This document shows positions 14,803-24,561 of a stretch of 64,000 nucleotides of DNA, one piece after another. The first letter of the stretch is position 1. Each line of letters begins with the position of its first letter. A program made the translations under genes and the position numbers. The notes under the pieces were generated by a model. It saw only the letters and a program-made list of their open reading frames with translations. It had not been told where the DNA came from and did no database searches. This DNA is from Microgenomates group bacterium Gr01-1014_5 (GTDB lineage Bacteria > Patescibacteriota > Microgenomatia > UBA8517 > UBA10165), in contig VMGE01000001.1 of NCBI GenBank assembly GCA_007376395.1, positions 25,635 to 89,634 on the forward strand, written 5' to 3'.

Positions 14803-14832
14803 TCTTATAGGCAGAGTTTCTGCTAAAATTGA
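14803..14832 (+). promoter_or_regulatory. 30-nt promoter/operator motif (TCTTATAgGCagaGTTTCTGCTAAAATTGA) upstream of the SNF2 operon; second copy at 24524-24553
   Basis: Extended -10 TGCTAAAAT. Near-identical 30-mer 11 nt before the 2TM/NTase operon start. Confidence 0.5.
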
Positions 14833-14864
14833 TCTGGTTTGTACCTTTTTAAGAATTTTAAGAT

Positions 14865-17800
14865 ATGTCGCAGTTTTTACGAAGCTATTTAGCTACAAAA
14901 CTTACTTTAAGGCGTTCAATTACTGACCCTGAAAAGTTAAATACCAGTATAAGGTCAGCAAATGTAGATTTAAACCCTCATCAAGTTGACTCCGCCGTAT
15001 TTGCGTTTAATAGTCCTCTCTCAAGGGGCGCCATTCTTGCTGATGAAGTCGGATTAGGTAAAACAATTGAGGCAGGACTTATTATTAATCAATTATGGGT
15101 CGAGGGGCAAAGAAAAATATTAATCCTAGTACCTGCATCTTTGCGAACTCAATGGGCAGATGAACTTAGAGATAAGTTTGGACTTGATTCTACAATTCTA
15201 GATTCCAAAATACTGAAACAATTACAACAATCTACCGATTCGTTTAATCCTCTTGATAATCCCAAAATCTTTATAGCTTCTCATAATTTTGCATATAAAA
15301 ACGAATTACATGTTAAAAAAACACCTTGGGATTTAGTAGTTATTGATGAAGCACACAGAATGAGAAATGTTTATAGGAAGGGTAACAAAACTGCAAAAAA
15401 ACTCAGAGAGACTATTTTAGGAAGACCAAAATTATTATTAACAGCAACTCCTTTACAAAATAGCTTAATGGAATTATTCGGCCTCGTTAGTTTTATTGAT
15501 GAAAAATATTTAGGCGACCCTGACTCTTTCAAATTTTTATATGTACAGCAACGAGGCACTAATAATGAGGCACAAAGGACTAAATTATCAGATCTTAGGG
15601 AGAGATTAATGGGGATAATTGATAAAAACACTGGCGAAACAGAGGGTGGAATAATGACTAGAACTCTTAGAAAACAGGTTAGAGGTTTAATCCCATTTAC
15701 CAATAGATTCAATATCACAGAAGATTTTAATCCAAATGACGACGAGGTAGAACTCTATAACAGCGTAAGTGATTATATTCAAAGACCTCTTCTAGCTTCT
15801 ACTAAGGCAACACAACGACACATGATGGAACTTGTTTATAGAAAAATATTAGCAAGCTCGTCGTTTGCTATTGCCGGAACTCTATTTCGGGTATCTCAAT
15901 TTCTAGCTAAAAGGTTGCAAAAGGAACACAAGGTTCAGATTGAAGAATTACAAGCCGTAGCCGATTTAGTATTAGTTGATGCCGACCAAAGGTTTGGCAG
16001 AAAATTTGATAAATTCGAAGTCGAAAAAGTTGAGGAAGTAGTTGAAGAAGAACAATTATCAATATTAAACGATATTGAGCTCTCGCTTGATGATTTAGAA
16101 GAAGAGGAAGGAGACGCTATTCAGGATGAACTAACAAAAATTGAAGAGGGCGAAGATTCCCCTAAGGAGTTGGAGGAAATACAAGAGAGAGAAATTGATC
16201 ACAAGTTTTCAAAAGAGGAAATTATTAGTGAATTTAAAGATGTTCTTGGCTACTACTTACTTGCTACTTCAATCGATAAAAATCAAAAAAGCCAATCATT
16301 GATTAGAGCGTTAAAAAAAGTTTTCGATCATGCTGAAAAAAAGAATTGGCCTAAAAAAGCAGTAATCTTTACCGAGTCGCGCAGGACTCAAGACCACCTC
16401 GAAAACATATTATCTCTGGCTGGTTATGAAGATAATATTATCTTGTTTAATGGTTCTAATGCCGGTAAAAAAGCAAAAGATATTTATCAAGAATGGGCTA
16501 ACGAGTTTCCTGACGAAGCAGAGAAAAATCCAAAATCTATTAGTTTGAGAAAAGCGTTAGTTTGGAAATTCAGAACCTTAAAAGAAGCTATTTTAATCAC
16601 TACTGAGGCTGGTGCAGAAGGTATTAATTTACAATTTTGTAATATTGTAGTGAATTATGACCTTCCTTGGAATCCTCAAAGGATAGAGCAAAGAATAGGA
16701 AGATGTCATAGATACGGACAGGAATTAGATGTATTAGTTATTAATTTTCTCAATAAAAGAAATTATGCGGATGAAAGAGTTTATGAATTACTACGAGAAA
16801 AAATAAAGCTATTTGGAAACTTGTTTGATTTTAGCGACAAAATCCTTGGAACTGAAGAGCAAACTGATGATGGTTATGAAGTTAGAGAAATTGCATTGGG
16901 TTCTTTAGATAGTGGCGTTGGATTTGAACGAAAGGTGCTTAATATCTATCAAAAATGCAGAACCAAAGTTCAAATAGAGAAGGAATTTAATCAATTAGAG
17001 TTAGATTTGTCGAGTGAGATAGAAGAAAAATTTGAAAATACACAAAGAAAAGTTATCCAACACTTCGATGAAGAAGTTAGGGCTAAATTAAGGATTAGAA
17101 ATCAAAAAATATCTGAAATGCTTAACTCTTTTGATAGAGATTTAGAGCGTTATATTAAGCTAGTTTTTAACTCTGGACTAAGGCAAATTGATGAACATAG
17201 ATTTGAAGTTAAGCATGTCCCTAAAGATATTGAGAAGTCTGATATTAAAAATCTGGTTGGAAAAATATTAGGAATTGGGGTAGTTACAGATATCGAAAGA
17301 CAAAAAGGTGTACTACCAATACACACAGAAACACAATATTTTTCTGATTTACTTAAAAAAGATGCCAAAGATAAGGATTTTATTTATAAGATTACCTTTA
17401 GCCATGACGGTGAGTCAAAGCGCTTAGATTTTAAAGATATTCATGGGAGGAATGGATTATTGAGCATTGTAAAAGTAGTTTGCCGTAGAAAAACAATAAA
17501 TAATATTGATGAAGTATTTGAAGAATTAGTTTTTACTTGCTTAGTAAAAGATGAAGCATCTTGGGCACTTCCTACAAAAGTTGAGGATGGAAAAGGCTGG
17601 AGTAACATTGGGAGTTATAAAGCAGAAAAAATAGTAAATTTATTGGTTAAAAATGAAAAACAAGCAGAATTTGAGATTCCTAATATTCTCAAAATATGTT
17701 CAGAAGAGAATATAAATTTAAAGAAGGAAGAGTTTATTGAGAAAAACCAAGGTTTTATAGAAAAAATGCGCGATCAATTAAATCAATATAGCGATGATGT

Positions 17801-18086
17801 TCTATTAAGATTCAAAAGAGAGATGGACGAAAGAGAGGAAGAAATTAGGGCGCTAGAAAGAAGTATGAAAGGCTCTAAGACGACAGGATTTCATGAACGA
17901 CAACAAATTCAGCAAGATATAGATAAAAAGCAACGACAATATGCCCAAGCAGTCAAGAAACACGCAGAAATGCAGTTGGGTTTATTCAACGATAAAGATA
18001 AGAGTTTAAAAGATTTAGAAAAAAAATTGACCTTAGGTTTTGAACTAGTACAATTGGCAACAATTTCATTTACAATTGAATCATGA
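14865..18086 (+). CDS. SNF2/RAD54-family SF2 helicase (DrmD-like), long C-terminal extension
   Basis: Motif I ADEVGLGKTIEAG, II VVIDEAHRMRN, III LLLTATPLQNS, V-VI TEAGAEGINLQ...YDLPWNPQRIEQRIGRCHRYGQ. Stop overlaps the next start (ATGA). Confidence 0.85.
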   Translation: MSQFLRSYLATKLTLRRSITDPEKLNTSIRSANVDLNPHQVDSAVFAFNSPLSRGAILADEVGLGKTIEAGLIINQLWVEGQRKILILVPASLRTQWADELRDKFGLDSTILDSKILKQLQQSTDSFNPLDNPKIFIASHNFAYKNELHVKKTPWDLVVIDEAHRMRNVYRKGNKTAKKLRETILGRPKLLLTATPLQNSLMELFGLVSFIDEKYLGDPDSFKFLYVQQRGTNNEAQRTKLSDLRERLMGIIDKNTGETEGGIMTRTLRKQVRGLIPFTNRFNITEDFNPNDDEVELYNSVSDYIQRPLLASTKATQRHMMELVYRKILASSSFAIAGTLFRVSQFLAKRLQKEHKVQIEELQAVADLVLVDADQRFGRKFDKFEVEKVEEVVEEEQLSILNDIELSLDDLEEEEGDAIQDELTKIEEGEDSPKELEEIQEREIDHKFSKEEIISEFKDVLGYYLLATSIDKNQKSQSLIRALKKVFDHAEKKNWPKKAVIFTESRRTQDHLENILSLAGYEDNIILFNGSNAGKKAKDIYQEWANEFPDEAEKNPKSISLRKALVWKFRTLKEAILITTEAGAEGINLQFCNIVVNYDLPWNPQRIEQRIGRCHRYGQELDVLVINFLNKRNYADERVYELLREKIKLFGNLFDFSDKILGTEEQTDDGYEVREIALGSLDSGVGFERKVLNIYQKCRTKVQIEKEFNQLELDLSSEIEEKFENTQRKVIQHFDEEVRAKLRIRNQKISEMLNSFDRDLERYIKLVFNSGLRQIDEHRFEVKHVPKDIEKSDIKNLVGKILGIGVVTDIERQKGVLPIHTETQYFSDLLKKDAKDKDFIYKITFSHDGESKRLDFKDIHGRNGLLSIVKVVCRRKTINNIDEVFEELVFTCLVKDEASWALPTKVEDGKGWSNIGSYKAEKIVNLLVKNEKQAEFEIPNILKICSEENINLKKEEFIEKNQGFIEKMRDQLNQYSDDVLLRFKREMDEREEEIRALERSMKGSKTTGFHERQQIQQDIDKKQRQYAQAVKKHAEMQLGLFNDKDKSLKDLEKKLTLGFELVQLATISFTIES

Positions 18087-24337: not shown

Positions 24338-24362
24338 GAAATAAGCTGATACAATCTTTTTA

Positions 24363-24515
24363 TGGCGAGATTTTTTAAACGAGAAGAAAATAAACCATAT
24401 ACCTACTCATCTATCGAGATGAGGAAATCTTCAAGCAAGACTACTTGGTGGATAGTCGGAGCCATCTTGTTAATACTTGCCATTTTCTTCTTATTTGTGG
24501 TCAAGCCATAGCTCT
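24363..24515 (+). CDS. unannotated 50-aa single-pass membrane micro-protein (MARFFKREENKPYTYSSIEMRKSSSKTTWWIVGAILLILAIFFLFVVKP)
   Basis: ATG...TAG frame read by hand in the intergenic gap; C-terminal hydrophobic helix. Below the ORF-track size cut-off. Confidence 0.25.
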
Positions 24516-24561
24516 TCCTCCTTTCTTATAAGGCTTATTTCTGCTAAAATTGACCCAAACT

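Follow-up and report, generated by a model that had tools for sequence, protein, structure and literature searches.

The 30-nt sequence that occurs twice in the 64,000-nucleotide stretch of Microgenomates DNA analysed here (the window) is probably the core of a ~38-nt promoter module, one that heads each cargo cassette of a defence hotspot in Microgenomates (CPR) bacteria, beside a type IV secretion system (T4SS) and on what may be an integrative conjugative element. The slot that holds the motif copies has a conserved pair of genes, PLD and XRE, on one side and a type IV secretion cluster on the other, as outlined in Table 1. The promoter activity of the motif and the position of its transcription start are predictions made from the DNA.

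Comparison of the two copies in the window bears out the repeat reported in the initial annotation. Both 30-mers are present on the plus strand and match at 24 of 30 positions without gaps; they are identical over their initial 7 nt (TCTTATA) and their final 16 nt (TTTCTGCTAAAATTGA). The combined pattern TCTTATA-N7-TTTCTGCTAAAATTGA has exactly two occurrences in the 64-kb window and none in 100 dinucleotide-preserving shuffles, and the 16-mer has no further match in the window at fewer than 3 mismatches. Similarity between the copies reaches 8-9 nt farther upstream, giving 39 nt in total. Each copy contains, as had been claimed, an extended -10 (TGCTAAAAT, at 14821-14829 and 24542-24550) and lies a short way from the first start codon of its operon, with 32 nt between 14832 and the SNF2 ATG at 14865 and 8 nt between 24553 and the effector ATG at 24562. 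The first copy does sit in the 100-nt divergent region that runs from the XRE start (14764, minus strand) to the SNF2 start. The TTG at 24550 given by the ORF finder overlaps the -10 and is implausible as a start.

Table 1 Features of the hotspot in the window (positions count from the first nucleotide of the window).
Feature	Position	Strand	Remarks
PLD-family (PLDc_2) protein, 152 aa	14112-14570	+	Pfam PLDc_2 E = 1.9e-11; left hotspot anchor
XRE-family HTH regulator, 65 aa	14567-14764	-	Pfam HTH_3 E = 2.2e-18; divergent from cassette 1
Motif copy 1	14795-14832	+	~38-nt unit; 30-mer core 14803-14832
Motif copy 1, block 1	14795-14811	+	TGCTTCTGTCTTATAGG
Motif copy 1, spacer	14812-14817	+	
Motif copy 1, block 2	14818-14832	+	TTCTGCTAAAATTGA
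Motif copy 1, extended -10	TG 14821-14822, TAAAAT 14824-14829	+	
Cassette 1, ~9.7 kb	14865-24337	+	Pfam, PADLOC
DrmD-like SNF2 helicase	14865-18086	+	Cassette 1
Type IIG/ISP-like N6 methyltransferase with specificity domain	18083-21370	+	Cassette 1
168-aa ORF	Between methyltransferase and Cas4-like nuclease genes	+	Cassette 1
Cas4-like PD-(D/E)XK nuclease	21811-22638	+	Cassette 1
145-aa ORF	Between Cas4-like nuclease and protease genes	+	Cassette 1; DUF4263-like match
Trypsin-like protease	23075-24337	+	Cassette 1
Small membrane ORF, 49 aa	24362-24511	+	Own extended -10 TGATACAAT at 24347-24355
Motif copy 2	24516-24553	+	30-mer core 24524-24553
Motif copy 2, block 1	24516-24532	+	TCCTCCTTTCTTATAAG
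Motif copy 2, spacer	24533-24538	+	
Motif copy 2, block 2	24539-24553	+	
Motif copy 2, extended -10	TG 24542-24543, TAAAAT 24545-24550	+	
Cassette 2, minimal CBASS-type pair	24562-25873	+	PADLOC, Pfam
Membrane effector, 181 aa	24562-25107	+	PADLOC Effector PDLC00664 E = 2.5e-62
SMODS/CD-NTase-type cyclase, 254 aa	25109-25873	+	PADLOC Cyclase PDLC00803 E = 4.2e-85
Type IV secretion cluster	25879-35207	-	Pfam; right hotspot anchor
Large serine recombinase, 526 aa	35706-37286	+	Pfam Resolvase, Recombinase, Zn_ribbon_recom
tRNA-Gly	37223-37297	-	Abuts large serine recombinase gene

The full motif consists of block 1 (TTCTCCTATCTTATAAG), a variable spacer of 6 nt, and block 2 (TTyTGCTAAAATTGA), which includes the extended -10. 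Assemblies from ENA, Logan, NCBI, and JGI provided 18 copies, spread over 15 independent loci, metagenomic or genomic, from related Microgenomates; the window, L005, and L100 have two each. Every copy points toward the downstream gene. In 16 of them the ATG is found 5-19 nt beyond TTGA, and the L090 copy lies ~125 nt from its ATG. The extended -10 TGCTAAAAT is retained in all copies but that of L099 (17/18), which reads TGTTAAAAT. Mean pairwise identity is 0.34 in the 5' flank, 0.74 in block 1, 0.42 in the spacer, 0.91 in block 2, and 0.33 in the 3' flank, where block identity is slightly inflated by 5 copies that came from an exact-pattern search; when these are left out the values are 0.33, 0.70, 0.41, 0.90, and 0.33. 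Copies from the same locus are no more similar in spacer and flanks than copies from different loci, which argues for selection on the two blocks as opposed to recent duplication. The motif is absent from 80 GTDB loci that encode more distant homologues of the effector and from the viral contigs searched, and no copy was detected at some cassettes of the slot, among them the Thoeris-like genes that follow the Type I system in L094.

Could the motif be the organism's general promoter consensus for housekeeping genes, a similarity that arose by chance, or the outcome of a local duplication or gene conversion of recent date? We give this almost no credence. The TGnTAnAAT element itself is common in the genome, with 23 sites in the window, several of which are found 5-20 nt ahead of tRNA-His, tRNA-Arg, and ORF starts; for these tRNA genes and many ORFs the distance is 5-12 nt. 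However, block 1 and the TTyTGC/TTGA flanks are missing from the other extended -10 promoters of the window, and a position-weight scan of the 64 kb with a 51-nt matrix returned only two sites, at 57-58 bits compared with 3.4 bits for the best shuffle. Chance is countered by the shuffles described above, none of which reproduced the pair. Recent duplication is unlikely since the window copies differ outside the blocks, with only 1/6 spacer positions and 3/20 flank positions identical. The identical two-block pattern in 15 independent assemblies argues against all of these explanations. The initial annotation had named occurrence upstream of many unrelated genes as the mark of a generic consensus; the genes are indeed unrelated, but all of them are cargo of one hotspot.

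The promoter reading is the one we prefer. Block 2 would serve as an extended -10 of the type used elsewhere by the host RNA polymerase, with transcription probably beginning a few bases downstream of it. For extended -10 promoters the -35 hexamer is optional; at a spacing of 17 nt the window copies have no TTGACA-like -35, the sequence being TATCTT or TGTCTT, a 1/6 match. A promoter scan of the window listed neither motif site. As the ATG usually follows block 2 so closely, the mRNA would have little or no leader, which is usual in this genome, and the promoter would then be the sole expression signal needed by a cassette. Some transcripts would not be leaderless, given the ATG distances of copy 1 and of the L090 copy. 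Block 1 is centred near -28 and does not resemble a -35 hexamer. Its conservation at a fixed distance from block 2 makes it the putative site of a conserved DNA-binding factor, by which it is most likely bound.

The cargo behind the motif is diverse. At least 12 different cassettes are headed by it, the SNF2 cassette being one, and the genes behind different copies are mutually unrelated. Among them are SNF2 and PLD-SNF2 helicases, MmeI/Eco57I-type methylases, an N4/N6 methylase, an EcoO109I endonuclease paired with a C5 methylase, Type I HsdR/M/S, an FtsK/Mrr protein, and the CBASS pair, as well as several ORFs that match no Pfam family. The restriction-modification systems represented are of Types I, II, and IIG. 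DISARM combines DrmA and DrmB (DUF1998) with DrmD or DrmMI. Cassette 1 was considered as a DISARM system and rejected: its SNF2 protein matches DrmD (E = 1.2e-169), but no ORF matches DrmB (DUF1998), DrmA appears only as a secondary match of the same helicase, and the methylase matches Type IIG/ISP models in PADLOC. Between the two cassettes is the 49-aa ORF, with 6 nt between its extended -10 and its ATG. Homologues of this ORF are found at cassette 3' ends in L002, L092, and L101; it is missing in L087, where the protease gene abuts the motif. Cassette 2 has the composition of a CBASS, namely a CD-NTase/SMODS cyclase (Pfam SMODS 26.6 bits, cut-off 26.5) and an adjacent effector, for which 690 homologues were found.

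On the left, the hotspot is anchored by PLD, which adjoins XRE in every locus fetched. PLD has 3096 homologues at E <= 1e-10, and the named ones, bar one, are from the Microgenomates group (Daviesbacteria, Levybacteria, Blackburnbacteria). On the right, the T4SS cluster encodes an M23 peptidase, a VirB4-like ATPase, TraC-like and PrgI-like proteins, a VirD4/TraG-like coupling protein, and two TrbC/VirB2-type pilin-domain proteins, one with a weak TrbL match. It also encodes a Replic_Relax homologue, the Replic_Relax match itself being seen only on the counterparts in L005 and L006; DNA of the T4SS region is 75-78% identical to these two loci and the genes are colinear. Relaxases have been reported missing from most CPR T4SS (PMC12102498). 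The large serine recombinase is likely the integrase of the whole element, and in L006 and L105-L108 its gene is found directly upstream of PLD. The hotspot is described here as carried on what looks like an integrative conjugative element. No 12-mer is common to both ends of this putative element.

Related loci reveal how the slot is filled. In L006, XRE directly faces the CBASS pair and cassette 1 is absent. In L005, the place of cassette 1 is taken by a 2.2-kb restriction-modification cassette (EcoO109I-type endonuclease and C5 methylase) that has a motif copy on either side and the CBASS pair behind it. The two window operons had been proposed to be parts of one island, a view that does not hold in the sense of one co-inherited system, since the CBASS pair adjoins XRE directly in L006, and in L005 it comes after a restriction-modification cassette that is unrelated. 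Homology to the window by blastn stops at 14835 (L002), 14833 (L100), and 14832 (L101), while colinear homology begins at 24518 (L005) and 24515 (L006); in L087 it covers the protease gene and the motif and ends at 24553. In these six comparisons, the breakpoints are within ~3 nt of the motif edges. The XRE protein of L002 is identical, and the downstream genes are different. From the slot states in L005 and L006 and the breakpoints at the motif edges, we infer that the window operons are independently acquired, stacked cassettes bearing the same hotspot promoter. The window would have two motif copies because two cassettes are stacked in it (SNF2/methylase/nuclease/protease and the CBASS pair).

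As the only sequence common to otherwise unrelated cassettes, the module probably also forms the seam at which cassettes are exchanged, most likely through homologous recombination over the ~40 conserved bases. The breakpoints show that the modules assort independently; any recombination mechanism would place breakpoints where a conserved linker begins or ends, so they do not imply that the motif itself mediates the exchange. It is improbable that the motif combines docking and expression, as a leaderless-mRNA promoter that would also capture and exchange promoterless defence cassettes via homologous recombination or an unrecognised recombinase. Still less probable, to the point of being very unlikely, is a dedicated site-specific recombination site similar to integron attI/attC, where a recombinase would capture and excise cassettes and promoter function would be secondary. 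Such a site would agree with the single motif per cassette at the cassette 5' end, with the six breakpoint positions, with the presence on the element of a large serine recombinase gene (directly beside PLD in the loci given above), and with a 75-aa gene found between two GGATAGTTTGC copies in L094. However, the motif has neither the dyad symmetry nor the hairpin potential typical of attC or serine-recombinase att sites, and its two blocks with a free 6-nt spacer suit a promoter better than a crossover core. The serine recombinase gene lies next to a tRNA gene where the element ends, a position that one would expect of a whole-element integrase. A tyrosine integrase of the IntI type was not found among the Pfam-scanned ORFs of 14112-37286 in the window, nor in the precomputed Pfam annotation of related loci; the sole recombinase in both is a large serine recombinase.

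The identity of the protein that reads block 1 can also be considered, and XRE is the obvious candidate. Its own gene has a TATAAT at 14776-14771, 6 nt before the ATG, which implies a leaderless XRE mRNA. The control by XRE suggested in the initial annotation is plausible from position but putative. In its fullest form, which we consider possible but doubtful, the motif would be both promoter and XRE operator: XRE would bind block 1 (through the 8-bp palindrome CTTATAAG, near -28) at every copy and repress all cassettes together, like a restriction-modification controller (C) protein, an Aca repressor, or Reg576 of p576, so that expression is transient or is induced after transfer or stress. 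In favour of it, the full motif lies immediately past XRE and faces away from it in 11 of 12 independent PLD-XRE loci that were fetched (L105 has block 2 only). The centre of block 1 is ~43-47 nt upstream of the leaderless XRE start (clade-A loci, L005), so one bound protein could affect both divergent promoters. Block 1 is conserved and yet is not a -35, making its reader probably something other than sigma region 4. PDB relatives of XRE include C.BclI, SinR, DdrO, and the ICEBs1 regulator, and a precedent exists in the repeated promoter-operator units ahead of variable conjugative-plasmid operons (PMC8708921). Against this, XRE falls into clades A and B, which share 41-57% identity and have a different helix 3 (VHVNYYAR vs VTDTFYAM), while one motif is common to both and does not vary together with the recognition helix. 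Better operator candidates are the clade-specific sequences between the XRE start and the motif (ATTATACAACTTTT..GGATAGTTTGC vs AAATATATTTACAGTATATC..ACAACTATAGG), which are absent at internal copies. The 51-nt consensus has no dyad above chance (the best, 10/17 positions, was reached by 137/500 shuffles), and the one palindrome present, of 8 bp, is short for an HTH dimer. Furthermore, there is no adjacent XRE at the internal copies W2, L005b, and L100b, nor at L091, where the motif is beside a pilin gene and the 7 kb upstream are without XRE.

Hardly any CPR bacteria have been cultured, and little is known about their transcription signals. A motif that is ~90% conserved across many Microgenomates genomes and precedes genes with almost no leader offers genetic tools for this group a candidate expression signal. 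Together with the PLD-XRE anchor, it can be used as a sequence handle for collecting defence cassettes from CPR metagenomes. An island assembled from independent modules at a shared promoter also calls for caution, as neighbours such as SNF2/methylase and CBASS should not readily be read as one functional unit. The T4SS link (coupling protein, relaxase-like gene, serine recombinase) is relevant to the question whether any type IV systems of CPR bacteria are conjugative. If the docking-site reading were true, Microgenomates would own an integron-like, plug-and-play defence platform tied to a type IV secretion element, and the entire arsenal might be gated by a single regulator (XRE or an unnamed block 1 binder).

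Among known systems, p576 of Bacillus (pLS20 family) carries EGeRS2 promoter-operator units, which contain a strong promoter, and the repressor Reg576, which is of the ribbon-helix-helix type and recognises dual heptamers TTATCCCnnTTATCCC on either side of the -35; the cargo of p576 consists of establishment and anti-restriction genes (PMC8708921). In both cases a conserved sequence bearing a promoter, a predicted one in the hotspot, is repeated before several highly variable operons of an element that is conjugative in p576 and putatively so here, with one copy at the gene of the regulator or candidate regulator. In the hotspot, such a sequence stands upstream of several variable operons on one element and the cargo differs at the 18 copies. 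Unlike in p576, the heptamer repeats are absent, the regulator would be an XRE HTH, a candidate by its position, the cargo is made up of restriction-modification, CBASS, and other defence-type genes, and the hosts, CPR bacteria, have leaderless mRNAs. A C gene is part of a single restriction-modification system, and C proteins (C.BclI, C.EcoO109I) bind palindromic C-boxes upstream of their own gene. XRE is similar in being a small XRE-type HTH beside restriction-modification genes that could time expression after transfer, and C.BclI is among its nearest solved relatives (PDB, E = 6.9e-7). It differs in that XRE is conserved backbone and faces whichever cassette is present, and the motif is without a C-box-like dyad. 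An integron platform is composed of the Pc promoter, attI, attC-flanked cassettes, the IntI tyrosine integrase, and attC hairpins. The hotspot shares with it the stacking of same-orientation cassettes at one docking point, a short conserved boundary sequence, and platform-type expression signals, but lacks IntI and attC hairpin symmetry and has its own promoter copy per cassette where the integron has a single Pc. Transcriptional regulators of CBASS include CapH/CapP and CapW, and the CapH gene is divergent from the CBASS operon. This arrangement is also that of the HTH regulator gene in L006; unlike in CapH/CapP and CapW, however, no CapP metallopeptidase or WYL domain is nearby, and in most loci the cassette opposite this XRE gene is not a CBASS, so XRE is not CBASS-specific. 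To our knowledge, defence hotspots of mobile elements have been described by their flanking genes and not by a conserved promoter on each cassette. As in the P2/P4 prophage hotspots (bioRxiv 10.1101/2021.01.21.427644) and those of ICEs and genomic islands (PMC12629846), a fixed backbone slot receives isolate-specific defence systems; what also sets the present hotspot apart from these is its host lineage, the Microgenomates, and its anchors, the PLD-XRE pair and the T4SS.

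The two 30-mers that the initial annotation placed at 14803-14832 and 24524-24553 are indeed found at those positions. They have TCTTATA in common, followed by seven poorly matching bases and then the identical 16-mer TTTCTGCTAAAATTGA, a pattern matched twice in the window versus never in 100 shuffles, and a repeat finder lengthens the pair to 39 nt at 77% identity. This shared motif is real and non-random. The extended -10, TGCTAAAAT, is present in both copies as claimed, and so are the positions relative to the operons: copy 1 lies 32 nt from the SNF2 ATG, within the 100-nt divergent region adjoining the XRE gene, and copy 2 lies 8 nt from the ATG of the membrane effector (24562). 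A TTG at 24550 is not credible as the effector start since it overlaps the -10 of copy 2. A weaker look-alike, TAGCCTATAATtctattTTTTGCTATAATTAC (about 11851-11882; 6 mismatches in 25), sits immediately ahead of a GerE/LuxR-type regulator gene (11891-12607, GTG start) and has no score with the 51-nt matrix described below.

The window is part of a 333-kb contig of Gr01-1014_5, a CPR bacterium, and the genes around the motif, called with Pfam and PADLOC, are listed in the table.

Motif copies and surrounding genes in the window
Feature	Position	Strand	E value
PLD-family protein	14112-14570	+	
XRE regulator	14567-14764	-	
Motif copy 1	14795-14832		
DrmD-like SNF2 helicase	14865-18086	+	
Type IIG/ISP-like methyltransferase	18083-21370	+	
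168-aa ORF	21372-21878	+	
Cas4-like PD-(D/E)XK nuclease	21811-22638	+	
145-aa ORF, DUF4263-like match	22628-23065	+	
Trypsin-like protease	23075-24337	+	
49-aa membrane ORF	24362-24511	+	
Motif copy 2	24516-24553		
CBASS-type effector + cyclase	24562-25873	+	2.5e-62 and 4.2e-85

Cassette 1, the SNF2-to-protease genes (14865-24337), has as a whole no match to any named system. DISARM is ruled out, as DrmA and DrmB are both missing by PADLOC. Identification of the PLD gene as DrmC was likewise dropped, the match being weak (E = 6.3e-5) and the gene belonging to the backbone that accompanies every cassette type; the PLD protein has no PDB relative by sequence. The 49-aa membrane ORF (MARFFKREENKPYTYSSIEMRKSS...) has its own predicted TGATACAAT promoter 6 nt ahead of its ATG (region 24347-24511). 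In L002, L092, and L101 (L numbers denote loci from other Microgenomates or metagenome assemblies), homologues close the cassettes at their 3' end; L087 lacks the ORF, and its protease gene directly borders the motif. Upstream of the PLD gene and of a 285-aa ORF are the copies of an 82-nt direct repeat (12644-12725 and 14015-14096; 89% identical), and a homologous stretch precedes PLD in L101 (9901-9986). Read on the minus strand, both copies contain a promoter-like TTGATA-17-TAAAAT site with TG and, after it, a GGGAGA...TCTCCC hairpin (z = -2.6 and -1.2); one copy faces a small GIY-YIG ORF (13704-13955). A search of 11400 to 15000 against Rfam for RNA elements within or close to the motif or this repeat gave no match at E <= 1.

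This Microgenomates genome appears to rely as a rule on extended -10 promoters and on mRNAs with no or almost no leader, because many genes carry TGnTAnAAT 5-12 nt ahead of the start and no Shine-Dalgarno sequence (e.g., 11875, 12743, 24347, 40681, 47006, 50621). The window holds 23 TGnTAnAAT sites, several of them 5-12 nt ahead of start codons and others immediately ahead of tRNA-His and tRNA-Arg. The reading of the motif as a generic promoter of the organism is true in part, in that the extended -10 itself is widespread in the window. As an account of the whole motif it is ruled out by the flanking blocks, which occur at only two sites in 64 kb: the sequences around the -10 of the two copies are absent from all other TGnTAnAAT sites of the window, and with a 51-nt weight matrix built from related copies only these two score (57-58 bits; best of 20 shuffles, 3.4 bits). 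Nor is the motif a feature of the CBASS family in general, as 80 GTDB loci that encode more distant effector homologues (33-62% identity) all lack it. A phage origin was rejected, the motif having no match in viral contigs.

Across 18 copies from 15 loci, the consensus is TTCTCCTATCTTATAAG (block 1), N6, and TTyTGCTAAAATTGA (block 2, where the extended -10 is located). Mean pairwise identity is 0.74 in block 1 and 0.91 in block 2, versus 0.34, 0.42, and 0.33 in the 5' flank, spacer, and 3' flank; without the five pattern-selected copies the values are 0.70 and 0.90, versus 0.33, 0.41, and 0.33. Spacer and flanks differ even between copies of one locus, which resemble each other there no more closely than do copies of separate loci. 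Such differences rule out recent duplication or gene conversion, and the pattern is instead characteristic of selection acting on two binding blocks held at a fixed distance. Block 1 contains the palindrome CTTATAAG, centred near -28. Its hexamer at 17-nt spacing, TATCTT, bears no resemblance to TTGACA, whereas TTGATA-like -35 elements are present at other promoters of the window, which suggests that block 1 is probably recognized not by the housekeeping sigma factor but by something else. In 16 of the 18 copies a start codon follows TTGA by 5-19 nt, implying predicted 5' leaders of about one to about fifteen bases, most under ten.

The genes headed by the motif vary widely. In L002 an identical XRE protein is encoded beside another SNF2 gene, one with a PLD-domain N-terminus, and another methylase; the locus carries a variant of cassette 1 with helicase and methylase replaced. 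Two more assemblies encode the closest effector homologues (87% identical). In L006, PLD is followed by an 85-aa ORF and XRE, after which the effector-cyclase pair and T4SS genes come immediately; this locus has one motif copy. In L005, XRE and effector are separated by an EcoO109I-type endonuclease and a C5 methylase, and each unit has one copy ahead of it. A metagenome pattern scan gave seven matches, five of which have the extended consensus. In these five the motif heads an N4/N6 methylase cassette adjoining PLD-XRE in L090, MmeI/Eco57I-type methylases adjoining a pilin gene in L091, and cassettes of mostly unannotated proteins in L087, L092, and L093. In a PLD-anchored sample chosen independently of the motif, it lies just beyond XRE in every PLD-XRE locus examined, L105 having only a degenerate version. 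Behind it L094 and L103 carry Type I restriction-modification systems, L097 an HsdR-like gene, L099 an 897-aa protein, and L101 two small ORFs; in L100 it precedes an FtsK/Mrr protein, and another cassette of that locus has a second copy. At L094 9350-9700, a 75-aa ORF with its own predicted promoter lies between two copies of the 11-mer GGATAGTTTGC, one adjoining XRE and the other immediately ahead of the motif, and looks as if it were an insertion with duplication of the 11-mer.

Control of the motif by the XRE protein, as initially proposed, is a hypothesis, and direct binding of XRE to the shared 30-mer seems rather unlikely. Although the motif adjoins XRE in 11 of 12 anchor loci, L091 carries it with no XRE nearby. 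Block 1 is suitably positioned for repression of the cargo promoter and, relative to the leaderless XRE start, falls at about -43 to -47 in L005 and the clade-A loci, yet the same motif accompanies two XRE clades that are 41-57% identical and have different recognition helices. Moreover, clade-specific sequences are found between the XRE start and the motif and are absent from internal copies, such as copy 2. The solved relatives of the XRE protein are generic (C.BclI, SinR, DdrO, and the ICEBs1 regulator). A GATAG-N7-CTATC inverted repeat was dropped as the XRE operator of clade-A loci, its spacing varying from N6 to N12 between loci.

Breakpoints were obtained by blastn of related loci against the window. 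L002, L100, and L101 have PLD, XRE, and copy 1 in common with it, and their homology ends at 14835, 14833, and 14832. In L005 and L006 homology begins at 24518 and 24515 and is colinear, at 75-78% identity, across the CBASS pair and T4SS genes to 31106 and 28959. L087 has the protease gene and motif (24512-24553) in common and is divergent beyond. Breakpoints at the motif edges show that the parts left and right of a copy assort independently; the SNF2 cassette and CBASS pair are separate acquisitions stacked in one slot. The promoter reading of the initial annotation stands as a prediction from sequence, but the motif does not speak for a single system made up of both operons; it is best described as a hotspot-specific cassette promoter marking module junctions.

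Downstream of the CBASS pair, on the other strand, is a T4SS cluster (M23 peptidase, VirB4-like ATPase, TrbC/VirB2 pilins, coupling protein), followed by a large serine recombinase gene that abuts tRNA-Gly; because of these the region looks like an integrative conjugative element. This ICE-like stretch (25879-37297) also encodes a protein homologous to a Replic_Relax protein. The majority of type IV systems in CPR bacteria reportedly lack relaxases, and T4SS of this phylum are reported as mostly non-conjugative (PMC12102498). A 52-nt inverted match (83%) links window 297-394 to the 5' part of the M23 peptidase gene (26430-26481), and L100 likewise matches 297-394, which may be a fragment or paralogue of that gene. 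Element ends or att sites were not found. The motif as a site-specific, att-like site was rejected, as it has no dyad symmetry and no 12-mer is common to both element ends, and no cassette-associated recombinase pointing to such a mechanism was found. Cassettes would most simply be exchanged by homologous recombination over the roughly 40 conserved bases.

Promoters, mobile elements, and defense islands are poorly charted in the Microgenomates, and the motif offers a practical sequence handle for mining cassettes. Full-text literature searches gave no description of the motif or of a PLD-XRE/T4SS defense hotspot in CPR. Restriction-modification controller proteins, integrons, CapH/CapW regulators, and mobile-element defense hotspots each have one aspect in common with the Microgenomates hotspot and fail in others. 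The nearest described arrangement is that of the EGeRS2 units of plasmid p576, in which a strong promoter with flanking operators is repeated ahead of variable operons and of the repressor's own gene (PMC8708921); the arrangement described here differs from it in regulator type, operator form, cargo, and host.
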